A DNA stretch of 36,098 nt from an uncultured Pseudomonadales bacterium (GCA_964548145.1 CAZJRX010000003.1:1-36098), one strand, 5' to 3'; counted from the first letter of the stretch, positions 21,171-30,897 are shown. Made by a program: numbers and translations. Notes: generated by a model not told the origin, from the letters alone.

Positions 21171-21410
21171 ATGCCCATAGGCCCGAACGGAGAGAAACGA
21201 CCGCCTGCCGTGGTCGCCAATGCCGTGCTCAGCATGAGGATCGTCACCGGTCAATCCGACGAAGTCATTGTGAAGACCAGCGCGCCGGCTAAAGACAGCT
21301 ACCAGGCCACAAAGCTGCCCATCAGGCGTCCCAGCAGAATCACCATGCTAGCCGCAGTTGCCCGTTGGGGTCCGCGACCATCCAAGGACATCGCCCTCGG
21401 CAGAGCATGA
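21171..21410 (+). CDS. Small conserved-looking hypothetical protein
   Basis: MPIGPNGEKRPPAVVANAVLSMRIVTGQSDE.. resembles a small-protein family recalled from alphaproteobacteria (..GEKRPADVIGNAV.VM.IATGE..). The track start at 21150 is TTG; the ATG at 21171 is more likely. Confidence 0.45.
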   Translation: MPIGPNGEKRPPAVVANAVLSMRIVTGQSDEVIVKTSAPAKDSYQATKLPIRRPSRITMLAAVARWGPRPSKDIALGRA

Positions 21411-21449: not shown

Positions 21450-22181
21450 ATGAACCGGTTGCCCAGCCCCAAACGTGCCGCGATATTGACCATGCTGGTC
21501 GAGGGGACTTCGATGCGATCAGTCTCGCGGCACGCCCACGTCAGCATCAACACGGTAACCAAACTTCTCATCGACGTTGGTGCTGCCGCCAAGGCCTACC
21601 ATGACGAGCACGTGCGTCGGATTCCCGGGCGCCGCCGAATCGAGTGTTGCCAGACATGGGCGTTCAGCTATCGGAATCCAGAACAACCCCAAAGCGCGTC
21701 CCGAGACATCCGGAATGCGTGGACTCTCGCGGGTGTCGACGCCGACAGCCGACTGATCGTGTCATTTCTCGTGGGCGACGAGAGCCGTCGCACCGCCAAT
21801 GCGTTCATCGCGGACGTACGACGCAGGCTGGAGCAGAACCCGGAACTGGCAACGAACCAGCTGCAGGGCATACGGGACCTGACGGATGAGGCCTGGCGCA
21901 ACTTCGCACCCGGCGGGCCCGCCCGTTCGGACATCACCCTACCCATGCCCAACAGCCTGGAGCAACGCCGGCTGGAGAAGCACATGGCGGTGATCGATCT
22001 TTACGCGCTGCACTACAACTTCTGCCGCGTTCACCCGGAACTGGCTGTAACCCCGGCGATGCGAGCAGGACTGGATGACCGCGTTCGCGGCCCGGCATGG
22101 ATGGTCGACCTCGTCGATGCCCGGGCCACGAAGCCAAACCGCCCCAAAACCTACCGGCGGCGGACCATCGATTCAAACTGA
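21450..22181 (+). CDS. IS1-like transposase homologue, apparently degenerate (HTH retained, catalytic acidic residues substituted, central part shortened)
   Basis: The N-terminus MNRLPSPKRAAILTMLVEGTSMRSVSRHAHVSINTVTKLLIDVGAAAKAYHDEHVR matches the HTH region of a transposase family recalled as ..RVQCDEIWSF.. / ..LTTDGH... Here these read RRIECCQTWAF and ELATNQL, and the protein is about 60 aa shorter than I recall for the family. No terminal inverted repeats seen. Confidence 0.55.
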   Translation: MNRLPSPKRAAILTMLVEGTSMRSVSRHAHVSINTVTKLLIDVGAAAKAYHDEHVRRIPGRRRIECCQTWAFSYRNPEQPQSASRDIRNAWTLAGVDADSRLIVSFLVGDESRRTANAFIADVRRRLEQNPELATNQLQGIRDLTDEAWRNFAPGGPARSDITLPMPNSLEQRRLEKHMAVIDLYALHYNFCRVHPELAVTPAMRAGLDDRVRGPAWMVDLVDARATKPNRPKTYRRRTIDSN

Positions 22182-22197
22182 TACATCAATAGCCGTT

Positions 22198-22241
22198 GTG
22201 CGGCGCGAGCACCTTGCGGTACGTTGATGGATGCGCCGCAC
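22198..22241. promoter_or_regulatory. Perfect 9-bp inverted repeat GTGCGGCGC-N26-GCGCCGCAC upstream of the precursor gene
   Basis: The arms lie at 22198-22206 and 22233-22241, between the transposase-like stop (22181) and the precursor RBS (AAGGGGGG at about 22253-22260). It could be an operator, a 5'-leader hairpin or a terminator of the upstream gene. Confidence 0.3.
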
Positions 22242-22266
22242 GGCGGTCCCTAAAGGGGGGTACGAA

Positions 22267-22578
22267 GTGAAAGCAACCGAGATGTTGGAGCAGTTGCTGT
22301 CGAGGGCGGGCGAAGACCCAGACTTTCGAACGCGCCTGCTGGCTGACCCGGAAGGAACACTAAAGGACGAATACGGGTTCAAGGTGCCTGAGGGAATGGA
22401 ACTGAAGGTAATCGAAGACTCGAGATCCACCTCGCACCTCGTCCTCCCGCCCAATCCGCAACTGAGCACGGCAGAAATGCGCGCGATCAGTGGCGGCGTT
22501 GGGAACGTCGACAACAACGAAGGCACCGGCGGTGGCGACACCGACTATACCCAACACCCGATCTTCCACGACAACTAG
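22267..22578 (+). CDS. NHLP (nitrile-hydratase-like leader peptide) family RiPP precursor with a double-glycine cleavage site
   Basis: ..MLEQLLSRAGEDPDFRTRLLADPEGTLKDEYGFKVPEGMELKVIEDSRSTSHLVLPPNPQLSTAEMRAISGG | VGNVDNNEGTGGGDTDYTQHPIFHDN. The leader follows the NHLP consensus (..D..F...Ll.nP...l.e.G..lPeg.e.kV.e.....hLVLPpnP...s..el..i.GG). The GTG at 22267 sits 6 nt after AAGGGGGG. The track ATG at 22231 and the ATG at 22282 are alternatives. Confidence 0.85.
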   Translation: MKATEMLEQLLSRAGEDPDFRTRLLADPEGTLKDEYGFKVPEGMELKVIEDSRSTSHLVLPPNPQLSTAEMRAISGGVGNVDNNEGTGGGDTDYTQHPIFHDN

Positions 22579-22583
22579 CCCGC

Positions 22584-22669
22584 AGCCCGACGAATGATGG
22601 CCATAATACGGCATCGCAAATGCGATTCGAGTGAGAGCCTTTTGCCGCGTTCATTAGACTAACGGGCTT
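22584..22669. repeat. Copy A of an 86-nt element shared with the interior of the oxygenase gene (direct orientation)
   Basis: Hand alignment with 29370-29453 gives 71 identical of 86 columns, 13 mismatches and two 1-nt indels. The identical runs are 13, 11, 11, 10 and 9 nt long. It starts 6 nt after the precursor stop codon. Confidence 0.8.
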
Positions 22670-22724
22670 CGCCTCAGACCGACGAGCCCGATCCAATCGG
22701 GTCGACCATTGCGCGGCTGAGGTG
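22670..22724 (+). promoter_or_regulatory. Nested hairpin in the precursor-to-transporter spacer (candidate attenuator or processing structure)
   Basis: The outer stem is cGCCTCAG (22670-22677) with CTGAGGtG (22717-22724, including a G-U pair). The inner hairpin is CCCGAT-cca-ATCGGG (about 22687-22701). No U-tract. Confidence 0.3.
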
Positions 22725-22814
22725 CGAGGGGATCCATCGCCGCCCGGACAGGCACGCAGGCTCCGCACAACGTGTTAGAGTCGGCCCCTTCGAGGGGATC
22801 CTGCCGCCTGGACA
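22725..22814. repeat. Two ~25-nt direct repeats 66 bp apart, upstream of the HlyD-like gene
   Basis: CGAGGGGATCCATCGCCGCCCGGACA (22725-22750) against CGAGGGGATCC-T-GCCGCCTGGACA (22791-22814). Each contains a GGATCC palindrome. The second is preceded by a CCCCT-tcg-AGGGG hairpin. Confidence 0.6.
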
Positions 22815-22850
22815 ACGCCAGTCGACGGCATACACACGTCGGAAGCGACC

Positions 22851-23555
22851 GTGCCCAACCGTTTCCCATGGGATAGATCGGAACGTCCCCGCGCTGGCGA
22901 CGCGAGTCCCCGTTCGAAGAATGCGCGCCTGCCCCACCAACCGCCGACCGCCAGTGACCGTGGATCGGAGGAGCCGGCGACGACCAAACCGCAGCTCTTC
23001 GCCAGCAACCGGTTGTTCAACGAAGAGGCGCTCAAGATGAGCGCCGAACTGGAGCCGGTCGACAATCCGACCCGTTCCACCACGCCGTACCAACCGCATG
23101 TCCTCGTTGCCCTTGGCCTAGTGCTCGTCGGCGCCCTCGCTTGGCTCCTACTCGGCGTCGTGGACCACAGCCTATGGCTGCGGGCCGAACGTATCGACGG
23201 TGCCGCCGTTGCGCCACCCGGTTCTGCGCCCGTCGTCCGGTTGCGCACGGTAGTCTCGCCCTCGGATGGCGAACTCCTGGCACCCGGGATGACCGCGTAT
23301 GTCTTTCAGGGCGGTTCCGATGGCGTTTTTTTCGAGGGTTCAATCAGTCGCGTGACCCGCGACACGTCCCACCAGGCGACGCCAACCACCAGGAGGGTCC
23401 TGCAGATCGATGTCTCGCCAACGACGACGTTGGTGCTCGAGCCTAGCGATACGGACTCGAGCTATCGGCTACGGGTGCCGATTGGTTCGCAAGCGCCGGT
23501 GGATCTGCTCCTCGGCTTAGTCAGCCGGCGAACCGCCGTAACCGAGGACGGATGA
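22851..23555 (+). CDS. Short HlyD-family-like adaptor of the NHLP export system
   Basis: 234 aa with a GTG start. RLFNEEALKMSAELEPVD matches the lFR.eAL..lss.e.LD N-terminal motif of bacteriocin HlyD proteins. A TM segment follows (HVLVALGLVLVGALAWLLLGVV), then a single beta-rich domain (..LAPGMTAYVF..GVFFEGSISRV..). The stop overlaps the ABC start (ATGA at 23552-23555). Confidence 0.62.
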   Translation: MPNRFPWDRSERPRAGDASPRSKNARLPHQPPTASDRGSEEPATTKPQLFASNRLFNEEALKMSAELEPVDNPTRSTTPYQPHVLVALGLVLVGALAWLLLGVVDHSLWLRAERIDGAAVAPPGSAPVVRLRTVVSPSDGELLAPGMTAYVFQGGSDGVFFEGSISRVTRDTSHQATPTTRRVLQIDVSPTTTLVLEPSDTDSSYRLRVPIGSQAPVDLLLGLVSRRTAVTEDG

Positions 23556-25744
23556 GGTCCGCATTCGCCGAGTTCCGGGGCCGATTGCGTCGCATTCGAA
23601 GGACCCCGGTTTTCCAGCAGATTCAAGCCAGCGAATGCGGTGCCGCGAGCCTGGGCATCGTTCTCGCGAGCCTCGGCAAGTGGGTTCGGATGAACGAGCT
23701 GTGCAGCGCTTGCGGCGTGAGCCGGGACGGATGTTCCGCGGCGGACATTCAACGAGCGGCAGCGCAATACGGCGTCGACGTGACCGGCTGGCAGCGCTCC
23801 GCCGAATACCTGAAGAGCCTCAAGACCCCTGCAATCCTGTTCTGGGAGTTTAGCCACTTCCTTGTGCTTGACGGATTCAAGAAAAACCGCTTCCACATCA
23901 ACGATCCGGCGAACGGCCACTACACGCTCGACGAGGCGACCTTCAAGGCGCGCTACATGGGCATCGTTCTGCTATTGCATCCGGGGCCGAATTTCACGCC
24001 ATCGGGTAGACCCTTCTCGCTCTGGCGGCAACTCCTGCCCTGGGTCCGTGACGAGAAGACCCCGATCATCCTCGCCTTCATGCTCGGCGTGCTATTGGCG
24101 GTGCCTACCTTGGCCCTGCCCGAGCTCATACGGTATTTCACCGACGCGGCGACCGGGCCAACCCGCCCCTCCGCCGTTCTGGTGGTAGGCGGCGCGGTTA
24201 CCATCGCGGGCTCGGTGTTTGCGCTCGTGTGGGGTCAGCAGCGAATCCTCCTCGCGGCCAGCATGCGAATCGCCGTCGCGCAGTCCGAACGCTTTCTTGC
24301 GGCGCTGTTGCGACTGCCCATGGCGTACTTCGCGCAACGCCTGTCCGGGGAACTGGCGTCGCGCACGCGGTTGCTCGACAACATCGCGAACACGGCCACA
24401 GCCCGGCTGGCGCAACTCATGATCGAGCTCACGATGAGCACGATCTACCTGGTCTGGATCGTACTTCAGGATTTGCTCCTCGCCGGTACAGCCGTGGTGG
24501 TTGCCGCATCGAACGTTGCCCTCGCCCGTTGGGTCTCCCACCGGCGCAAGCACGAGAACTTTCGGTTGCGCCGCAGCCAAGGCATGTTGTCGGGCATCGG
24601 CACGATGGGCGTAAAGAACCTCGACTCCCTCCGAGCTTCCGGTGCCGAGGGAGACTTCTTCACGCGTTTCAGCGGCTACCAAGCCCTTGAACTCGGCTAT
24701 CGCCAACGCTCTGCGGAACTCGGTGCCATTGCGAACTCATTGCCACCGTTCTTTCTCATGCTGGGCGGCGCCGTGGTCCTCGGCGTGGGCGGCATGCGCG
24801 TGATATCGGGGGATATGTCCATCGGCGACGTCGCCGCCACCTACTTCGTGATCGGCAGCTTCCTTTTGCCCATCGGCAGGTACGTCGAGTCGGTGGGACT
24901 GATACAGATCCTCGAAGCCGACATGCGGCGTGTAAAGGATGTCCTGGATGCCGACCCGGACGCCAGTGCGGAAACACCAGCCAAGTCAAGCCGAGTCGCC
25001 AGCATCGGTCGACGCCTGCGTCTCTCCGGGCGGCTAGAGCTGCGCGATGTCACCTTCGGCTATCGACCACATCACGAGCCGATCATCGAAGGGTTCAATC
25101 TGACCCTCGAACCCGGCCAGCGAGTCGCGCTGGTCGGGCCGAGCGGTTCCGGCAAATCGACGATCGCGTCTCTGATCGCCGGCGTCCATAGGCCTTGGTC
25201 CGGCGAAATACTGTTCGACGGACACGCCCGCGACGACATTCCCCGCGAAGTCGCAATCGACTCGGTTGCCTACGTGAACCAGCGGGTAAACCTCTTTTCC
25301 GGCAGCGTCCGGGACAACCTCACCATGTGGAACCCGACAGTTCCGGATGGCCTCGTGGTCGGCGCGGCCCAGGACGCGCATATTCACGACGAGATCGCAC
25401 AGCGACCGCTGGGCTACGACACGCTGGTAGACGAAGGCGGCAACAACTTCAGCGGCGGCCAACGGCAGAGGCTGGAGATCGCCCGAGCACTCGTACCCCG
25501 ACCGTCATTGATCATTCTCGACGAAGCGACGAGCGACCTCGACGCCGCCGTGGAGTCCCGCATCGATGATGCCCTCCGCCGCCGGGGTTGCGCATGCCTC
25601 ATCGTTGCCCACCGGCTGAGCACGATACGCGACAGCGACGAAATCCTCGTTCTCGATCGTGGCCGGACCGCCCAGCGCGGTCAGCACGAAGAGTTGATGC
25701 GGGAGGAAACGGGCCTCTATCACTCCCTGGTGACGTCGCAGTAG
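23552..25744 (+). CDS. NHLP-type bacteriocin ABC exporter with an N-terminal C39 peptidase domain (peptidase/permease/ATPase)
   Basis: 730 aa. C39 catalytic context QASECGAASLGIVL, ..FSHFLVLDG.. and ..INDPANG. A six-TM permease region follows. Walker A GPSGSGKST, signature FSGGQRQR, Walker B LIILDEATS. Confidence 0.93.
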   Translation: MRSAFAEFRGRLRRIRRTPVFQQIQASECGAASLGIVLASLGKWVRMNELCSACGVSRDGCSAADIQRAAAQYGVDVTGWQRSAEYLKSLKTPAILFWEFSHFLVLDGFKKNRFHINDPANGHYTLDEATFKARYMGIVLLLHPGPNFTPSGRPFSLWRQLLPWVRDEKTPIILAFMLGVLLAVPTLALPELIRYFTDAATGPTRPSAVLVVGGAVTIAGSVFALVWGQQRILLAASMRIAVAQSERFLAALLRLPMAYFAQRLSGELASRTRLLDNIANTATARLAQLMIELTMSTIYLVWIVLQDLLLAGTAVVVAASNVALARWVSHRRKHENFRLRRSQGMLSGIGTMGVKNLDSLRASGAEGDFFTRFSGYQALELGYRQRSAELGAIANSLPPFFLMLGGAVVLGVGGMRVISGDMSIGDVAATYFVIGSFLLPIGRYVESVGLIQILEADMRRVKDVLDADPDASAETPAKSSRVASIGRRLRLSGRLELRDVTFGYRPHHEPIIEGFNLTLEPGQRVALVGPSGSGKSTIASLIAGVHRPWSGEILFDGHARDDIPREVAIDSVAYVNQRVNLFSGSVRDNLTMWNPTVPDGLVVGAAQDAHIHDEIAQRPLGYDTLVDEGGNNFSGGQRQRLEIARALVPRPSLIILDEATSDLDAAVESRIDDALRRRGCACLIVAHRLSTIRDSDEILVLDRGRTAQRGQHEELMREETGLYHSLVTSQ

Positions 25745-25764
25745 GCGGCTGCGGAGGAATTCGG

Positions 25765-28629
25765 ATGCCGGAACTCGTCAGCCGCGAAACGCAACGCGGC
25801 GCGTTTCCCCTCACCAACGGCGGCCATGCCTGGCGCGTCGAGTCCGGTGCCGCCGATGTCTTCGTCGTCCATGTGAAGAACGGCGTCGTAAACGCACCCT
25901 ACAAACACATACTGCGCGCCGGCGTTGGCCAGCTCGTGTTCGGGGTCGAGCCACTCGTTCTGGACGATGGCAGCCAGCTCGAGCTACGCGCGAAAGGTCT
26001 GCCGGGGTACCGGCTCCGGGCCCACACGGCAACCGAACTGATCCGGCCCGACGGCGAAGCCACGGTCATCGCCCAGGTAGACGACTGGGTGGCAGGCTTC
26101 ACGGCGGCGGTGGTGCGGGACATTGCACCGGCGCCGCGTACCGACGTGTTCGTTAGCAAGGGCCATGTGCCGATGTTCCGGGCCGGCATGCGCGCCTCCG
26201 CACGTCGTGGCGTCGTATGGCTTTCGGCCCTCAATGCGGCTTCCTACCTGGGCCTGGTCGATGCCGACGACGAGAGCGAGTGGCTGCCGCTGACACCGCA
26301 GAGTTGGCTGCGTTTCGCGGGACCGGCCGAGGACATCGTTGCAGAGTCTACGAAATGCCTTCTCCAAGCCGGATTGCTGCCGGGGGCACTCGACCGATTC
26401 CACCACAGAATCCTCGAGGCGGAACGCCTGAACCGGATCCTCGCGGCGGTCGACGACGCAAACCTCCAGATGGACCGCTCGACACTGCGTCGCGAAGAGG
26501 AAGAGCGCGCGAGAAGCGAACTTCGACACCTCATAGAACAAACCACCGCCGAAACCGGCGGGCCCGCACTACACGAAGCCCTCGAGGCGATCGGGGAATG
26601 CGAGGGCATCGAGTTTCAGTTTCCGACCGTCGGTGTCGACAACTCCAGGTCCAACGATCCGGTCGTCGAAATCGCGTTCGACTCCCGCGTCAGGGCCAGA
26701 CCCGTGCGTCTTGACGCAACGACACGCTGGTGGACCGGCGACAGCGGCGCCTTGCTCGGCTTTCGCCACGACGGTTCGCCGGTCGCCCTGTTGCCGGGCC
26801 GGCTCGGACGGTACCGTTTGCGGGATCCGGGAACGCGCACGACAACCACGGTGAATCGTAGCGTGGCCGCGACGCTGCACGAGTTCGCGTGGATGTTCGT
26901 AAGTCCCCTCCCCGAACGACCGGTCAGGGTCAAGGACACGCTGAGGCTTCTAACTAGGCACGTCGGCCTGGACGCGACCCGGTACGCGTTCGCTGGGATC
27001 GTCGCGGGGCTGATCTCCTTCACGCCCGCCGCCGTGGTTGCGGCGGTTATCGACTGGCTAGTCCCCGGGCGCGCGCCCGACTTCCTATGGCTGGCGCTCG
27101 GCGCGCTCGTATTGCTCGCCGTGATGGGGTTCCTGGTCCAGATCTCGCAAAGCACGACCTTGTTGCATATCGAGGGCCGCGCCACGGCGCGCATGACCGC
27201 CGCTCTCTGGGACCGGTTGTTGCGTCTACGCCGGGAACACCTGCACCTATACAATTCCGGCGAACTCGCCCAGCGGGCGCTGGTCTTCCAGGACCTTCGC
27301 GAGAGCTTGTCGGGCATCGTCTCCTCCACCTTAAGTACCATCCTCTTTCTGCTGCCAACCCTGGGCCTCCTGTTCCTGTTCGACCCGACACTGGCTACGG
27401 CGAGTCTCGCGCTCGGGGTGGCCGGACTGCTCGTGGTCGCCAGCTTCGGAATTCGTCAGATCAAGTGGCAGCGACGCCATCGGGTTGCGCAACAGGCGTT
27501 GGCCGGCAGCATGTTCCAGTTCGTCAACGGCATCGAAAAGCTCCGTGCCACGGGCGCCGAGAGCTCCGTGTTTGCCTTTTGGGCAAAGAGCTATCGACAG
27601 AAGAAGCACGCCGAGATCAAGGTCGAACGACTGACCGCCCTAACGACTGCCGTGAGTGGCTCACTGCCCACGTTCGCTGCGGCCGTACTATTCGCTCTCG
27701 CACTTCTGCGGCCAAGTGGATCACTCGAAGTCGGTGCGTTTCTCGCCGTGTTCGCCGCCTCCATGACATTCTTCGCAGCGGTGACAAGGCTCGGCGGATC
27801 AGTCGGCGCAGTGGCTTCCGTCATCCCGGCGTACCAACAGGCCAAACCTCTACTCGACCCCACCATTGAACGCCATGCCTCGGGCAAGCTTGCACACGTT
27901 GGCGAGATTCAAGGCGATATCCGCCTAGACCACGTCTGCTTCAACTACGACGACGACTCGCCGGTACTGGACGACGTGTCCATGCATGTCCGCGCCGGCG
28001 AGTTCGTTGCGATCGTGGGCGAATCCGGTGCCGGCAAGAGCACGCTGCTGCGGCTGATCCTCGGTCTGGAGAGACCTAGCACGGGAGCCGTGTACGTCGA
28101 TGAGCGAAACCTCTTGTATCTCGACGACCACGCGCTGCGCCGGCAAATCGGCGTTGTCGCCCAGAACGGCTCACTGCAGCCCGGAACGATCCTACAGAAC
28201 ATCGTGGGCATCACCGGCGATCGGACCCTTGCCGACGCCTGGGCAGCGGCGCGCAAGGCAGCGCTGGCCGACGACATTCGAGCGATGGAAATGGGCATGT
28301 ACACGCCGGTCGGCGAGTATTCCGGGCTGTTCTCCGGCGGCCAGGTGCAGCGGATACTCATCGCCCGGGCGCTGGTTCGCAATCCGACGGTCGTCGTGCT
28401 GGACGAAGCGACCAATTGGCTCGACAACGCCAGCCAGGCCGAAGTCATGAGGAGCATCGCCGAGATCGCCGCCACCCGCATCGTGGTCGCCCACCGGCTG
28501 TCGACGATCCGCAATGCCGACCGCGTCTACGTCATGTCGAGGGGCAAGGTCGTCCAGTCGGGTACGTTCGACGAACTAGCCGCAATTCCAGGTCTTTTCA
28601 AGGAGTTGATTGCCCGCCAGATGACTTGA
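25765..28629 (+). CDS. Second NHLP-type ABC exporter subunit (permease/ATPase) with an N-terminal cyclic-nucleotide-binding-like barrel and no C39 domain
   Basis: The ATG at 25765 has GGAGG 7 nt upstream. The track start at 25588 would overlap ABC1 by 157 nt. A ~150-aa N-terminal beta-barrel-like region (..HAWRVESGAADVFVVHV..) is followed by a long linker and a TM domain. Walker A GESGAGKST, signature FSGGQVQR, Walker B VVVLDEAT. Confidence 0.9.
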   Translation: MPELVSRETQRGAFPLTNGGHAWRVESGAADVFVVHVKNGVVNAPYKHILRAGVGQLVFGVEPLVLDDGSQLELRAKGLPGYRLRAHTATELIRPDGEATVIAQVDDWVAGFTAAVVRDIAPAPRTDVFVSKGHVPMFRAGMRASARRGVVWLSALNAASYLGLVDADDESEWLPLTPQSWLRFAGPAEDIVAESTKCLLQAGLLPGALDRFHHRILEAERLNRILAAVDDANLQMDRSTLRREEEERARSELRHLIEQTTAETGGPALHEALEAIGECEGIEFQFPTVGVDNSRSNDPVVEIAFDSRVRARPVRLDATTRWWTGDSGALLGFRHDGSPVALLPGRLGRYRLRDPGTRTTTTVNRSVAATLHEFAWMFVSPLPERPVRVKDTLRLLTRHVGLDATRYAFAGIVAGLISFTPAAVVAAVIDWLVPGRAPDFLWLALGALVLLAVMGFLVQISQSTTLLHIEGRATARMTAALWDRLLRLRREHLHLYNSGELAQRALVFQDLRESLSGIVSSTLSTILFLLPTLGLLFLFDPTLATASLALGVAGLLVVASFGIRQIKWQRRHRVAQQALAGSMFQFVNGIEKLRATGAESSVFAFWAKSYRQKKHAEIKVERLTALTTAVSGSLPTFAAAVLFALALLRPSGSLEVGAFLAVFAASMTFFAAVTRLGGSVGAVASVIPAYQQAKPLLDPTIERHASGKLAHVGEIQGDIRLDHVCFNYDDDSPVLDDVSMHVRAGEFVAIVGESGAGKSTLLRLILGLERPSTGAVYVDERNLLYLDDHALRRQIGVVAQNGSLQPGTILQNIVGITGDRTLADAWAAARKAALADDIRAMEMGMYTPVGEYSGLFSGGQVQRILIARALVRNPTVVVLDEATNWLDNASQAEVMRSIAEIAATRIVVAHRLSTIRNADRVYVMSRGKVVQSGTFDELAAIPGLFKELIARQMT

Positions 28630-28674
28630 GGTCCGACATCGAGACGAGAGCGTCAGGTAGGTAACACCTTGCCG

Positions 28675-30249
28675 CTACAGTGCCTGCCCGCCGGGGTCGT
28701 TGACGAAAACAACGTCCTCCTTGAGTAGCTGCCTGACGAAGTCGTCGACGAAGTCGATGGCGAAGCGACCCGCATGCGCCGTCTTCAGTTCGCCAACCGG
28801 GATCGACTCGCGGTCGGCGATCATACGGAGGAGGTCGAGACAATAGACGTCGAACTCACGCACCAGGCCATTTGCCCTCAACCAGAAGGAACCAGTTCCC
28901 GGCGGCACATCAAGTACCGCTTGGCGCCTACCCCTGAGCGAGAGCTCGAAGGCATCCCAGTCGGGTGATTTCCACGGTTCGATGTAGGTTGACAGTGCGG
29001 TTCGGGTCGACTCCGTCCACGCGGCGCGGACATCCTCCGCAAAGCGCTCGCCGAAGTCGTCGTGAAGCTGCCCCCGGATGAGATCCGCCACTGCCGCAAA
29101 GTAGCTCGATCGTACTGTTTCGTCCGCCGCCAACGGTGTGTTCCGGCGGAACAATTCGTGGTCGAGCAACTTCCTTTCAAGCCAGCGGAGAATCCAGGTG
29201 CCGGTAACGGTACGCGTGCCGAGCGTGAGATGAACGCTGCCGACGCCTTCGTCGGCGCAATCGACGCGTGCATCATGCCACCACCCACGCGGGATGAAGA
29301 GCACATCGCCTGCCGTCAATGTCCCGACCCAGGCCGGGTGTGGCGGGCTTTCGCTAGCGGGGGCACCCCAGCCCGACGAGTGATGGCCATAGTCCGGCAT
29401 CGCAACGCGACTCGAGTGAGAGCCCCTTTCCGCGTTCAATGGACTAGTCGGTTGACTGTCGTAACTCGTCGGCGAGGATCGAGTCGGCTTGAACAGACGC
29501 CATTCCTTGGCGCCGGTCACTTGGATGACGAAGACATCGTGGTCGTCCCAGTGCGTGGCGAAGCCCCGGGTCGAGTGCCACGAGGCATATAGATTGACAT
29601 TCACGTAGGTTGCCAAGGCGCCCTCGATGTCACGGGCCAGGCGCGCGACGGGCGGATGGTATTCCTGGATCGCGTTCACGATGAGTGTCGAACCGGTACG
29701 CAGGAAATTCGCGAGTTTCCTGCCATCGATCCTTGACACGTTCGGCCCGGGTTGGCGACTGCCAAGGCCCAGGTTGTCGACCTGGTAAAGGTAGTCAGCC
29801 GTCTCTCGGCCGTCGGCGATCAGGTGAACCAGCGGTGGGCGCAGGTTCCTAAGGCAGACAATTTCGTTCAGGTCATCCCACGTCACCAGACCCGCGAAAC
29901 GGTCGTCGCGGCCACGAAAGATCACGGGCCTCGGGTCGCCGTGCTGCCGCGTCGCGAATTCGGCGATATCGAGCGGTGCGATCAGCGAATCGATGCCCCC
30001 CAGACTCGACGACCCTTCGGGTGATTCGATTTCCTCGAGGACGAGACGCTCGCCATCCTCGCCGGCACCATCCGACTCCGGCTCCAGTCGAATCTTGAGG
30101 TTCGGGACGCCCGCCTTCCTCGACAGGTGTTCGAGTACCGCTTCCTCGTGGCGGTTCTCGCGCTGGTAGACGGCATGGTCGATGGGTCCGGCTGCGACAA
30201 ATGCCTTGCCCAGGAACATTTCGTGCGCGTTACGGGTTGGTTCGGCCAT
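28675..30249 (-). CDS. JmjC / cupin-4-type Fe(II)/2-oxoglutarate-dependent oxygenase with N- and C-terminal extensions (candidate RiPP tailoring enzyme)
   Basis: 524 aa with GGAG 6 nt before the ATG. FATHWDDHDVFVIQVTGAKEWRLF (HxD at aa 233/235), LTAGDVLFIPRGWWHDA and GSVHLTLG (distal His340) match the RoxA/YcfD-type cupin-4 signature. It is convergent with ABC2 across a 45-nt gap. Confidence 0.85.
   Translation of the reverse strand: MAEPTRNAHEMFLGKAFVAAGPIDHAVYQRENRHEEAVLEHLSRKAGVPNLKIRLEPESDGAGEDGERLVLEEIESPEGSSSLGGIDSLIAPLDIAEFATRQHGDPRPVIFRGRDDRFAGLVTWDDLNEIVCLRNLRPPLVHLIADGRETADYLYQVDNLGLGSRQPGPNVSRIDGRKLANFLRTGSTLIVNAIQEYHPPVARLARDIEGALATYVNVNLYASWHSTRGFATHWDDHDVFVIQVTGAKEWRLFKPTRSSPTSYDSQPTSPLNAERGSHSSRVAMPDYGHHSSGWGAPASESPPHPAWVGTLTAGDVLFIPRGWWHDARVDCADEGVGSVHLTLGTRTVTGTWILRWLERKLLDHELFRRNTPLAADETVRSSYFAAVADLIRGQLHDDFGERFAEDVRAAWTESTRTALSTYIEPWKSPDWDAFELSLRGRRQAVLDVPPGTGSFWLRANGLVREFDVYCLDLLRMIADRESIPVGELKTAHAGRFAIDFVDDFVRQLLKEDVVFVNDPGGQAL
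29370..29453. repeat. Copy B of the shared element, lying in-frame inside the oxygenase gene (encodes aa ~266-294, QPTSPLNAERGSHSSRVAMPDYGHHSSGW)
   Basis: See copy A. It has the same plus-strand orientation, so it is antisense to the oxygenase mRNA. Confidence 0.8.
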
Positions 30250-30321: not shown

Positions 30322-30897
30322 TCACGTGGGTCGCGTCACCATGGTCGGCCCGGCCACGCCCAACGGGCGATCCCGATAGTCCAACGGATAACGTCGGGCG
30401 TGGGCGTTGTGCTCGCGCCACAACGCCACGAACCACTCCGGTACCTGTTCGTCGCCGCATTGATCGGCGAGTCGGTTCTCGCCGTCGAGGCGCCAACCAT
30501 CAACCGGCGCAACACATCGAACCCGATGACCCCACCGAACCAGTTCGCCAACGCCGGTATCGGCCGCGAACCGACGTAGGTACTCCAGCACGCGGGCATG
30601 ATGCGGGTACCGGGGCCAGTCGTCGCCACCACCGCCGGCATCGTCGAAGGTGTACCCGTCGAACGCCATCAAGTCGCGCGGCAGGTTGACGCGCATCGAC
30701 TCGTAGAGGGAAGTGTGAATGCGCCGGGTTGTTCGTTGGCCGAGCGGGTCGTCCTCGACCGAGTCCGTGTAGTTCCACAGGCCACCGACCTGCGTCGACT
30801 GCTCGAACACCGTCACGCGGTGATTCTCCCGGCGGAGCTCGTGTGCCGTTACGAGACCCGCAGCACCCGCGCCGATGACGGCCACTCGCATCGGCAT
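30322..30897 (-). pseudogene. Truncated flavin-containing monooxygenase (N-terminal FAD-binding part only)
   Basis: MRVAVIGAGAAGLVTAHELRRENHRVTVFEQSTQVGGLWNY..IHTSLYESMRVNLPRDLMAF..YPHHARVLEYLRRFA.. matches the first ~130-160 aa of FMO/GS-OX-type enzymes, which are normally ~430-460 aa. The FMO-identifying motif, the NADPH GxGxxG and the C-terminal half are absent. The ORF ends 72 nt before the oxygenase start. Confidence 0.55.

Follow-up and report, generated by a model that had tools for sequence, protein, structure and literature searches.

The block at ~21.2-30.25 kb of the contig analysed here is best explained, with better than even probability, as a compact RiPP cluster in a gammaproteobacterium of sponge-symbiont type with a reduced genome, in which the core of an NHLP precursor peptide would be oxidised by a Fe(II)/2-oxoglutarate (2OG) oxygenase of the ribosomal-oxygenase (ROX) type and the product exported. 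The contig comes from an uncultured Pseudomonadales bacterium (GCA_964548145.1 CAZJRX010000003.1:1-36098); its whole length of 36,098 nt, referred to below as the window, is the portion of the genome covered. The closest relatives of the window are sponge-derived MAGs. In related contigs of 1.8-2.1 Mb the locus is intact and syntenic. Features are listed below by position in the window.

21171..21407, plus strand: conserved 79-aa ORF with an MPIGPNGEKRP... start, function not assigned, at the upstream edge of the conserved block
21450..22181, plus strand: 243-aa ORF with an N-terminal helix-turn-helix, weakly IS1-transposase-like (Pfam, NCBIfam)
22267..22497, plus strand: precursor, NHLP leader part, 77 aa ending AISGG (TIGR03793); alternative upstream ATG at 22231
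22498..22578, plus strand: precursor, 26-aa core VGNVDNNEGTGGGDTDYTQHPIFHDN and stop codon (homologue alignment, core listing)
22580..22661, no strand assigned: repeat copy A of an 85-nt element, directly after the precursor stop codon
22851..23555, plus strand: 234-aa ORF, probable short divergent HlyD-type adaptor (position, remote orthologues); true start perhaps further downstream
23552..25744, plus strand: ABC1, C39-peptidase/permease/ATPase exporter (NHLM ABC1; Pfam, TIGR03796)
25765..28629, plus strand: ABC2, second permease/ATPase without a peptidase domain (NHLM ABC2; TIGR03797)
28675..30249, minus strand: 524-aa Fe(II)/2OG oxygenase, ROX type, candidate maturase (Pfam, PDB profile, AF2, Foldseek)
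29366..29446, no strand assigned: repeat copy B of the 85-nt element, inside the oxygenase gene
30322..30897, minus strand: FMO remnant, 191 aa, with an in-frame internal deletion of ~222 codons (tblastn)

Precursor and export genes

The precursor ORF at 22231/22267-22578 (+) matched TIGR03793 (leader_NHLP) at 65.4 bits, above the cutoff of 50.9, bearing out the NHLP-like leader ending in AISGG that had been claimed in an earlier reading of the DNA (the sequence-only reading), and was the sole NHLP ORF in the 36-kb window. The start was assigned by comparison with orthologues P0242-P0261 and by the ribosome-binding site; a GTG at 22267 agrees with orthologues beginning MKATEM... and lies downstream of a GGGGGG ribosome-binding site, giving a precursor of 103 aa, 77 in the leader and 26 in the core. 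The leader/core junction (...MRAISGG / VGNV...) has an equivalent in 24 homologues. The core is acidic and contains no Cys, Arg or Lys, and its C-terminal motif, D-[ST]-D-[YW]-x-x-HPIF[HR]D, was invariant in the homologues reaching the C-terminus (n = 23 of 24, aligned by eye), with His and Arg alternating at the [HR] position. Trp content is low in this lineage, at 0-2 residues per core. Some precursors from multi-precursor loci lack Asp/Asn or lack His, and thus no single target residue is universal.

Downstream of the precursor, ABC1 contains Peptidase_C39, ABC_membrane and ABC_tran domains (Pfam), carries the Cys (SECG), His (SHF) and Asp (NDP) motifs, and had its best NCBIfam match to TIGR03796 over the full length at 808.5 bits, slightly missing the equivalog cutoff of 853.3; it is predicted to cut after the leader Gly-Gly and export the peptide. 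The best match of ABC2 was to TIGR03797, covering the whole model at residues 268-953 (680.6 bits, below the cutoff of 709.4). Its ~265 extra N-terminal residues had no Pfam match, and the cNMP-like domain formerly assigned to them was not detected by Pfam. Of the three-gene exporter described in the sequence-only reading, the two ABC proteins stand on their best model matches, but the HlyD-like ORF had no Pfam or NCBIfam match of its own, TIGR03794 included. This ORF was tied by phmmer to distant positional orthologues in two other loci (L014 and L022), which score 72-81 bits against TIGR03794 (cutoff 156); its place between precursor and ABC1 is conserved in relatives, and it overlaps ABC1 by 4 nt, a hint of translational coupling.

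A unit of an NHLP/Nif11 precursor and a TIGR03794/96/97 export trio was reportedly defined by Haft and colleagues in 2010, and classically it occurs together with cyclodehydratases, LanM or rSAM enzymes. The window shares the precursor family, the Gly-Gly end, the C39-ABC and second ABC exporters, a probable adaptor and the gene order with this unit; however, its adaptor is shortened, both ABC proteins lie slightly under equivalog cutoffs, and the classical partners are absent. The ORFs scanned in the window yielded no YcaO, LanM/B/C, rSAM, methyltransferase or ATP-grasp domain (ORFs of 508, 484, 439 and 324 aa had no Pfam match and a few others were left unscanned, all at least 6 kb from the precursor), and no classical maturase was found within ±10 kb in the syntenic relatives. 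These scans agree with the earlier statement that the locus has no conventional maturase, and the oxygenase is its only candidate maturase. Strict membership in the proteusins (polytheonamide-like) was rejected, as the window has no radical-SAM domain.

The oxygenase and its linkage to NHLP precursors

The 524-aa protein scored 76.4 bits against JmjC_2 (PF08007; cutoff 22) and 45.6 bits against Cupin_8 (PF13621; cutoff 27.4). Residues H233, D235, K248 and H325 are invariant across 24 oxygenase homologues, and the HxD, K and H positions align with the metal- and 2OG-binding motif of NO66, which was matched at 2e-28 in a profile search against the PDB. The AF2 model (pLDDT 79, pTM 0.78) consists of an N-terminal extension, a JmjC barrel, a helical (dimerisation) domain and a C-terminal winged helix that may be RRE-like. 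In Foldseek it aligned over ~490-510 columns to NO66 and MINA53 (E 1e-22 to 1e-20), and full-length NO66, MINA53 and YcfD were among the matches. The JmjC fold and intact HxD...H triad reported earlier were thus confirmed by the proposed domain check, but the FIH-type label was replaced, as the profile and fold searches point to the NO66/MINA53/YcfD architecture; FIH itself was a remote fold match (E ~1e-8, TM 0.3, against 1e-22 for ROX). The C-terminal part is modelled as strands (435-467) followed by helices (468-510), and no PqqD-type (RRE) HMM match was found in the protein; RRE-like folds fused to PF08007 have been noted previously (PMC12710340). The gene is under purifying selection, with dN/dS of 0.14-0.25 within the lineage.

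To determine how often such oxygenases occur beside NHLP precursors, the neighbourhoods of homologues were surveyed as the sequence-only reading had proposed, and the enrichment was strong. An NHLP precursor lay within 10 kb of the oxygenase in 26 of 29 informative loci (homologues of 33-73% identity) and in none of 51 loci with distant-clade oxygenases (Fisher p = 5e-18). In 16 loci, 12 of them with both genes on one strand, the nearest precursor was within 650 nt. The linked loci come from Acidobacteriota, Spirochaetia, Binatia and Alpha- and Gammaproteobacteria, at least six class- or phylum-level lineages. One oxygenase is paired with Nif11-type precursors (L083), and two loci (L029 and L030) have a precursor and an oxygenase with no prenyltransferase-like, cyclase-like or ABC exporter gene within 10 kb, where only conserved families were annotated. 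This recurrence of the enzyme-peptide pairing across distant bacterial lineages makes a functional link between oxygenase and precursor very likely, judging from gene neighbourhoods. The linkage claimed earlier is thereby upheld, although by the homologue survey and not by the shared nucleotide element or the truncated gene also offered as signals, both described below.

In this lineage the oxygenase gene is convergent, facing the precursor operon, and is co-directional with the FMO, SDR and PolB genes.

Operon structure alone in this lineage would not tie the oxygenase to the precursor. A highly improbable alternative is that the oxygenase has nothing to do with the peptide and is a chance neighbour, either a housekeeping ribosomal-protein hydroxylase, as its architecture might suggest, or a member of the FMO-SDR-PolB array with which it shares a direction opposed to the cassette. 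Against this alternative, the flanking DUF5916, FMO, SDR and PolB genes of the window are absent from all non-syntenic oxygenase loci, whereas the NHLP genes are retained. In addition, YcfD was only a remote, partial match in the PDB profile search (E 4e-10), two paralogues flank the cassette on both sides in L088/L089, and elsewhere the gene shares an operon with the peptide genes, overlapping ABC2 by 4 nt in L009 and lying 85-250 nt from the precursor in L014, L018 and L022. The chance-neighbour reading is therefore already strongly disfavoured.

The ROX enzymes NO66 and MINA53 are His C3-hydroxylases and YcfD/RoxA is an Arg C3-hydroxylase, all acting on ribosomal proteins. They gave the best whole-chain profile and fold matches to the window's oxygenase and share its HxD...H and Lys motif; however, identity is 15-20%, the oxygenase is longer by an N-terminal extension of ~90 residues, its gene is partnered with that of a secreted-peptide precursor and not a ribosomal protein, and its clade is not confined to a single housekeeping copy (two per locus in L089 and L019). 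The genomic context argues for the peptide precursor over a ribosomal protein as the probable substrate.

Genome-specific insertion and FMO remnant

The two copies of the 85-nt element are 85-87% identical, with 0 matches expected by chance, so that the shared element noted in the sequence-only reading is real. Copy A sits in ~120 nt missing from the closest relative, has no stable fold (z = -0.2) and no Rfam match. Copy B is a ~90-nt in-frame insertion that adds 30 aa (residues ~266-295) to an oxygenase loop whose length is constant in the homologues, and AF2 predicts residues 269-297 as disordered (pLDDT below 50). Copy B is absent from 23/23 aligned oxygenase homologues and from L090 and L092, and neither L001, the 73%-identical relative, nor any other locus contains the element. 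At both sites the element is an insertion confined to this genome, and it is not a signal of linkage. Likewise, the truncated gene at the island edge is genuinely shortened but is an internally deleted FMO; only residues 17-138 and 361-416 of the L001 FMO align with the remnant (tblastn), and the FMO is full length, at 413-416 aa, in L001, L002, L004, L005, L088/L089, L090 and L092 (intact in 8/8 syntenic relatives whose length was read). The remnant probably lies outside the peptide system.

The insertion could impair the window's oxygenase, which raises the unlikely alternative of a real cluster that is decaying in this genome and yields no mature product. The predicted disorder in a loop of conserved length, the deletion in the adjoining FMO, the fragmented ABC genes of L002 and L004 and the truncated precursor ORF of L002 would all fit such decay. 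However, the oxygenase has an unbroken reading frame that keeps every catalytic residue, its dN/dS against L001 is 0.185, and no damage is seen in the precursor, the C39 motifs or either ABC gene; the lesions in the relatives are perhaps partly assembly errors, the L002 contig having ~4x coverage.

Maturation chemistry and known pathways

The favoured reading, a functional cluster with an oxidised and exported peptide, would proceed as follows. The 103-aa precursor, with a structured leader and a 26-aa acidic, Cys-free core, would be bound by the oxygenase through protein-protein contact with the leader, possibly through the N-terminal extension or the C-terminal winged-helix/RRE-like domain of the enzyme. 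One or more core side chains would then be oxidised, the likeliest reaction being a C-H hydroxylation (+16 Da) at some position of the invariant C-terminal motif, and the C39-ABC exporter, with ABC2 and the short HlyD-like adaptor, would remove the leader after Gly-Gly and secrete the peptide. The residue modified could be the one at the His/Arg position or the invariant His (both by beta-hydroxylation, as carried out on ribosomal proteins by NO66/MINA53 and YcfD), an Asp, or the Tyr/Trp. Asp/Asn may be modified, but His/Arg would be at least equally attractive, because of the likeness to ROX enzymes and the His/Arg alternation in the core.

Fe/2OG enzymes are also known for cross-linking, desaturation and cleavage-type reactions. 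It is thus conceivable, albeit decidedly unlikely, that the oxygenase acts on the precursor by an oxidative cross-link (e.g., Tyr/Trp to His), a desaturation or a C-terminal oxidative cleavage; the invariant aromatic and His residues lie close together in the core motif, and the two L089 paralogues suggest more than one reaction. However, NO66, MINA53 and YcfD are described as hydroxylases in the names of their structure entries, and the JmjC RiPP enzymes PhaI, CzlI and BipG are hydroxylases as well (PMC8784127, PMC11575548, PMC12707348).

JmjC-type hydroxylation of RiPP precursors, NHLP precursors included, is already known from related enzymes, and the suggestion in the sequence-only reading of an undescribed maturation logic was overstated. 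In the phaeornamide (selidamide) pathway of Pseudophaeobacter arcticus, the PF08007 hydroxylase PhaI acts on an NHLP precursor, as demonstrated by co-expression (Hubrich et al. 2022; PMC8784127), and the pha cluster was reported with peptidase-containing export machinery, phaT1-T3 (PMC8784127, PMC9505594). PhaI resembles the window's oxygenase, by family and description, in its PF08007 domain and an NHLP precursor with a Gly-Gly leader end, but it hydroxylates ornithine made by an arginase, in a pathway that also uses LanM and a GNAT acyltransferase. Domains of these three kinds (arginase, LanM, GNAT) were not found in the window, and since its core lacks both Arg and Lys, the residue acted on must be another than in PhaI. 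Other characterised JmjC RiPP hydroxylases are CzlI (curacozole; PMC11575548) and BipG/BpmG/PbsQ (biphenomycins; PMC12707348, PMC12257519). Like the candidate here, they are Fe(II)/2OG JmjC enzymes, and they hydroxylate ribosomal precursor side chains; however, they are accessory in pathways built on YcaO or MNIO/B12-rSAM enzymes, where the leaders are short and not of the NHLP type, CzlI converting Phe to Tyr and having the two-domain YxbC as its nearest structure and BipG hydroxylating ornithine, whereas the oxygenase of the window has a three-domain ROX architecture and no partner enzyme.

CinX, DurX/DivX and CanE, from lanthipeptide pathways, and the alphaKG-HExxH peptide hydroxylases are named as separate enzyme types (PMC11575548, PMC12257519). 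These Fe/2OG enzymes beta-hydroxylate Asp in RiPP cores, the reaction that had been proposed for this locus. To our knowledge, none of them is of the JmjC/ROX type, and they always accompany a class-defining enzyme. In sponge symbiont MAGs, Loureiro et al. (2022) reported four cluster families combining a cupin-4 enzyme with an NHLP domain (PMC9426513); these are very likely the same kind of locus as the window, although the report is a one-sentence genome-mining note without an analysis of enzyme, precursor, phylogenetic spread or chemistry.

Among the other precursor-bearing loci, an ABBA-prenyltransferase-like protein accompanies the oxygenase in 19 and a squalene-hopene-cyclase-like protein in 14, and a PoyD-like epimerase occurs in L006 and L007 only. 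As the oxygenase elsewhere mostly has a prenyltransferase-like and often a cyclase-like partner, it may be accessory there and not defining. A quite unlikely alternative for the window is therefore that such maturases are encoded elsewhere in a genome seen through 36 kb, the oxygenase being accessory here too. Against this, members of both families outside this lineage are in every case no more than 10 kb from the oxygenase, yet they are absent from the window (tblastn) and from ±10 kb around L001, L002, L004 and L005 (phmmer); in addition, the cassette gene lists of L089, L090 and L092 leave no large gene unexplained, and the cores of this lineage are Trp-poor.

A bolder form of the favoured reading, possible but doubtful, is that reduced-genome sponge symbionts keep a new RiPP class for which the ROX-like oxygenase is both the defining and the only maturase, placing a modification unseen in RiPPs on the invariant tail. 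If so, the modification could be a His/Arg C3-hydroxylation, as on ribosomal proteins, or an aromatic-His cross-link, and the resulting peptide might be acidic and bind metal. This oxygenase clade is combined with a wholly unannotated ABBA-prenyltransferase family, a squalene-hopene-cyclase-like protein and Trp-rich NHLP cores in six or more further lineages, which would point to an undescribed family of prenylated, possibly cyclised, ribosomal peptides.

Upstream of the precursor, the 79-aa ORF is matched at the same position and at 52-73% identity in L001, L090 and L089 (tblastn), and precedes a 224-243-aa helix-turn-helix ORF in L001, L002, L089, L090 and L092 too. The 243-aa ORF of the window matched HTH_Tnp_ISL3 in Pfam (E 1e-3) and IS1 in NCBIfam (26.6 bits, cutoff 100). 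Orthologues are kept at the same position in L001, L002, L004, L005, L089 (48% identity), L090 and L092, and the protein may thus be a regulator or a domesticated transposase.

Gene content and enzyme fold

All of the genes listed in the sequence-only reading were present in the window, but two of its labels fared less well. HMM searches gave no direct match for the 234-aa ORF, the HlyD assignment included; its distant positional orthologs match the NHLP-system HlyD model TIGR03794 weakly, and its designation as a short, divergent adaptor is reasonable but unproven. Similarly, Pfam gave no match for the N-terminal ∼265 residues of ABC2, where the proposed cNMP-binding domain was not detectable. 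The precursor comprises a 77-aa leader ending in AISGG and a 26-aa core, VGNVDNNEGTGGGDTDYTQHPIFHDN, in which Cys, Arg, and Lys are all absent, and no second precursor was found in the window. The window appears to span its whole public contig, as the contig with the identical oxygenase measures 36,098 nt.

Genes of the locus in the window
22267-22578, + strand: NHLP precursor (TIGR03793, 65.4 bits; cutoff 50.9)
22851-23555, downstream of the precursor: 234-aa ORF with a 4-nt overlap with ABC1
23552-25744: exporter ABC1, with C39 peptidase, permease, and ATPase; best match TIGR03796, full length; Cys/His/Asp motifs intact
25765-28629: exporter ABC2; best match TIGR03797
28675-30249, − strand (convergent): oxygenase, 524 aa; JmjC_2 (PF08007) 76.4 bits, Cupin_8 45.6 bits
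30322-30897: flavin monooxygenase (FMO) remnant; an internal deletion in frame removes residues ∼139-360 of the 416

In an alignment of 24 oxygenase homologs, H233, D235, K248, and H325 were invariant. The profile of this alignment matched human NO66 (E 2e-28) and MINA53 (3e-22), as well as Bacillus subtilis YxbC (4e-16) and Escherichia coli YcfD (4e-10), with the oxygenase motifs HWD, GxK, and RGWWH aligning with the corresponding NO66 motifs. The AlphaFold2 model (pLDDT 79, pTM 0.78) has four parts, specifically a poorly predicted N-terminal extension of ∼70-90 residues with one helix, a JmjC barrel, a helical domain (∼350-410), and a C-terminal domain (435-517) of strands followed by three helices. 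In Foldseek, nearly the whole chain matched the three-domain ribosomal oxygenases (ROX), with E-values of 1e-22 to 1e-20 for NO66/MINA53 and 1e-15 for YcfD, whereas FIH matched at only about 1e-8. Because both the profile and the Foldseek searches favor NO66, MINA53, and YcfD, the modeled enzyme is ROX-like rather than FIH-like; the cupin-4/JmjC family named from sequence was thus upheld by the JmjC_2 match and the NO66-type fold, and its extensions could be located in the model, but the FIH-type subfamily was wrong. Fusions of RRE-like folds to PF08007 were noted in earlier work (PMC12710340).

The domain scan covered all but a few ORFs of the contig, four of the larger ones giving no Pfam match, and it detected neither YcaO nor lanthionine synthetase, radical-SAM, methyltransferase, or ATP-grasp domains. 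Pfam assigned the window's other large ORFs to housekeeping or unknown genes only. A hidden second maturase was also sought by tblastn, for which related loci supplied prenyltransferase-like, cyclase-like, sulfotransferase-like, and PoyD-like queries; none of these matched the window.

Linkage of oxygenase and precursor across genomes

Linkage was surveyed in 80 genome loci encoding oxygenase homologs, together with contigs for individual homologs, by searching all six-frame ORFs for matches to proteins of the window and to an HMM built from the precursors found. Among the loci whose oxygenases are 33-73% identical to that of the window (L001-L030), at least one NHLP precursor lies within 10 kb in 26 of the 29 that were informative, whereas none of the 51 loci from a distant clade of ∼400-aa oxygenases (Pyrinomonadaceae, Streptomyces/Kitasatospora) has one within that distance (Fisher p = 5e-18). 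This neighbor-frequency check was clearly positive, and the linkage is much stronger than could have been known from the window itself. The NHLP-positive loci span Vicinamibacterales and other Acidobacteriota, Pseudohongiella, Arenicellales and other Gammaproteobacteria, Alphaproteobacteria, Spirochaetia, and Binatia. The genes flanking the cassette in the window (DUF5916, FMO, SDR, and PolB) were found in none of these cross-phylum positive loci, and the oxygenase-NHLP association is therefore not inherited synteny. A housekeeping enzyme that stands beside the cassette by chance is highly improbable.

The nearest precursor lies ≤650 nt from the oxygenase gene in 16 loci, on the same strand in 12 of them, and the pair occurs without the ABC exporters in seven (L017, L023, L025, and L027-L030). 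L029 and L030 are separate loci on one Arenicellales chromosome, each with a precursor and an oxygenase and without the system's other conserved families nearby. The precursor is likely to be the substrate of the oxygenase.

In L007, no NHLP gene was present, and its sibling contig L083 has Nif11-type Gly-Gly precursors instead. In L083 (4593-7398) and L006, oxygenase homologs of 39-40% identity stand beside Nif11-type Gly-Gly precursors ending in ...GDGNW, with a His/Gly-rich Gly-Gly peptide and a TldD/PmbA pair as neighbors; L006 and L007 also contain a PoyD-like radical-SAM epimerase (TIGR04517, 305 bits).

A further homolog, in L084 (6063-10493; the same locus as L026), had no detectable NHLP gene; its flanks encode a pair of sulfotransferase-like proteins, of 623 and 333 aa, together with an FAD_binding_4 oxidase and an ABC2-like exporter, and the 333-aa protein also adjoins the oxygenase in L006 and L007. 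Within the distant clade, small ORFs lie directly 5′ of the oxygenase in a Streptomyces locus (L086:7428-7981; 75 and 43 aa) and a Pyrinomonadaceae locus (L087:7537-7950; 137 aa), and could encode non-NHLP precursor peptides.

Conservation and lesions in the window's lineage

Nine syntenic loci were recovered from the window's own lineage (L001, L002, L004, L005, L088/L089, L090, L092, and L003, the contig of which ends just beyond the oxygenase), with oxygenases 55-73% identical to that of the window. Where contigs were long enough to judge, these share the order DUF5916, 79-aa ORF, 224-243-aa HTH ORF, precursor, adaptor, ABC1, ABC2, convergent oxygenase, FMO, SDR, and PolB. The 79-aa ORF (21171-21407 in the window) and the HTH/IS1-transposase-like ORF (21450-22181; 243 aa in the window) stand 5′ of the precursor in every syntenic relative reaching that far and, in L089, 5′ of a second oxygenase gene; possible roles are regulation or descent, as a pair, from a domesticated mobile element. 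[quoted passage not shown] Across the lineage, the oxygenase is present in one or two copies, without the two companion families described below.

Pairwise dN/dS of the oxygenase within the lineage was 0.14-0.25 (0.185 at dS 0.74 between the window and L001, its 73%-identical close relative), and the gene is, by this sequence-based estimate, under purifying selection. The L090 and L092 loci are on contigs of 2.08 Mb and 1.84 Mb, an ankyrin-repeat gene near the latter fits a lineage of reduced-genome sponge symbionts, and the names of related MAGs point to sponge sources. That the locus is conserved under purifying selection in relatives on contigs of 1.8-2.1 Mb suggests importance of the peptide to a symbiont living within its sponge.

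Two relatives have ABC exporter genes broken into fragments (L002:13366-17188 and L004:11545-14415), and the precursor ORF of L002 has no N-terminus; these lesions reflect either assembly error at low coverage or decay of the cluster at scattered points in the lineage.

The sequence-only reading had supported linkage by adjacency, by a nucleotide element shared between the precursor flank and the oxygenase gene, and by a truncated gene at an island edge; adjacency stood, whereas the other two did not. The shared element is a genuine 85-nt repeat (22580-22661 and 29366-29446), both copies of which are bordered by CTAG/TTAG. The copy in the oxygenase is an in-frame insertion of ∼30 residues (∼266-295) that is predicted to be disordered and is missing in all 23 aligned homologs and also in L090 and L092; the flank copy begins at the precursor stop codon, within ∼120 nt missing from L001. 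Searches of 87 related loci and of JGI metagenome contigs gave no additional copy, and the element gave no stable fold signal and no Rfam match. The repeat is a genome-specific insertion at both sites; it is not evidence for co-regulation, and it was rejected as a regulatory or linkage signal. Descent of the flank copy from another, convergent oxygenase gene like that of L088/L089 was also considered and was not supported: blastx matches were weak in both the window and L001, and five orthologous intergenic regions, translated in six frames, scored below shuffled controls with the oxygenase-family HMM. An origin as a MITE was likewise unsupported, as both ends were read without an obvious terminal inverted repeat and further copies were lacking.

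The truncated gene is a real lesion; however, it is an internal in-frame deletion of the FMO specific to this contig, and the gene is intact in every syntenic relative. FMO was absent from all non-syntenic oxygenase loci. It was rejected both as a pathway member and as an island-edge scar, and the deletion marks local decay rather than an island edge. The ∼30-residue insertion may also impair the window's copy of the oxygenase. Decay of the locus in the window's genome would accommodate both lesions; it is unlikely, though the least unlikely of the alternatives weighed here.

Core peptides, proposed pathway, and companion families

Twenty-five precursor clusters homologous to that of the window were found, all from its lineage. 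Their cores differ in both sequence and length over the first half and share an invariant C-terminal motif, D-[ST]-D-[YW]-x-x-H-P-I-F-[HR]-D, with an optional final Asn. Either His (HPIFHD) or Arg (HPIFRD) stands immediately before the last Asp, dividing P0253, P0254, P0256, and P0258-P0260 from the other precursor homologs. His and Arg are the residue types known to be hydroxylated by characterized ROX, specifically His by NO66 and MINA53 and Arg by YcfD, a parallel that is suggestive but not evidential. In the 56 cores from all linked loci, Trp, Asp, Asn, and Cys make up 8.9, 14.9, 7.3, and 0.7% of residues, Asp or Asn adjoins an aromatic residue in 48, and 25 end in Trp. A few lack Asp/Asn or lack His, and there is therefore no universal single target residue; the candidate sites of modification are His/Arg, Asp, and Tyr/Trp.

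Our favored reading, which we hold to be somewhat better than even, is that the oxygenase would bind the NHLP precursor and hydroxylate at least one side chain in the conserved C-terminal core motif, after which the C39-ABC exporter would cut the leader behind Gly-Gly and secrete the product. Taken separately, hydroxylation is the probable reaction. An oxidation other than hydroxylation is improbable, the characterized JmjC enzymes of RiPP pathways being hydroxylases. PhaI (PF08007) hydroxylates ornithine on the phaeornamide NHLP precursor, with arginase, LanM, and GNAT partners in a cluster reported with the peptidase-containing export machinery phaT1-T3 (PMC8784127, PMC9505594); in other RiPP classes, CzlI converts Phe to Tyr (PMC11575548) and BipG/BpmG/PbsQ act on ornithine (PMC12707348, PMC12257519), and the Fe/2OG enzymes PoyI and EreI hydroxylate proteusins (PMC9505594). 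The likeness to PhaI, BipG, and CzlI is drawn from their published descriptions.

Given PhaI and the other precedents, a JmjC hydroxylase acting on an NHLP precursor is known in principle and the cupin-4/NHLP pairing has been seen before, and the earlier claim of novelty was too strong. JmjC was nowhere mentioned together with NHLP or Nif11 in the literature searched. As far as found, the oxygenase-only arrangement, ROX architecture, core motif, cross-phylum linkage, and companion families are apparently undescribed. Overall, the original observation and the oxygenase-precursor linkage stand, and two of its three arguments, the FIH subfamily, and the extent of novelty do not. Maturation by the oxygenase alone, if it holds, would make this the simplest NHLP pathway known and the first with a ROX-type enzyme as the defining rather than an accessory maturase, and would connect secreted natural products with a protein-hydroxylase family known from ribosome modification. 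A single precursor and a single enzyme, together with orthologs free of the insertion and cores that naturally vary between His and Arg and between Tyr and Trp, form a clean testable set for co-expression. The locus is a one-enzyme RiPP system of symbionts, apparently under selection, and opens onto a broader uncharacterized enzyme-precursor family.

Most linked loci outside the window's lineage contain two more conserved families, X and Y, that are missing from the window.

Companion families in related loci
Family X, in L008-L014, L016-L025, L027, L028, and L031 (e.g., L027:6036-7091 and L018:8074-9198): prenyltransferase-like, beside NHLP precursors and the oxygenase
Family Y, at L027:13806-14783, L017:5102-6097, L018:18731-19747, L009:20056-21066, and others: cyclase-like

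A need for further maturases encoded elsewhere in the genome is an unlikely alternative, slightly less likely than decay, and both are compatible with the favored pathway for the lineage as a whole. Family X (∼350-400 aa) had no Pfam or NCBIfam match, and its 223 homologs all lack a name and a Pfam domain. Its AlphaFold2 fold (pLDDT 92) has five alpha-alpha-beta-beta repeats and matched the ABBA prenyltransferases EpzP, PriB, AmbP1, NphB, CloQ, and IptA in Foldseek, and by predicted fold it is an ABBA aromatic-prenyltransferase barrel. Often two or three paralogs are present, each adjoining its own precursor, and the cores of these loci are Trp-rich. Family Y (∼320 aa) matched squalene-hopene cyclase (E 8e-17, profile against PDB) and occurs with the oxygenase, family X, and NHLP precursors in 15 loci, which hints at cyclization of a prenylated peptide. 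Together, the two families and the Trp-rich cores suggest an undescribed prenylated-peptide family that the oxygenase would serve as one enzyme among several, and this cross-phylum association of the oxygenase clade with a prenyltransferase-fold family offers a lead to new chemistry for prenylating peptides. Prenylation of a C-terminal Trp in NHLP precursors is already known from PalX/PalQ (PMC10853753); however, the enzyme in that system belongs to the isoprenoid-synthase superfamily (IPR008949), whereas family X is predicted to form an ABBA barrel.
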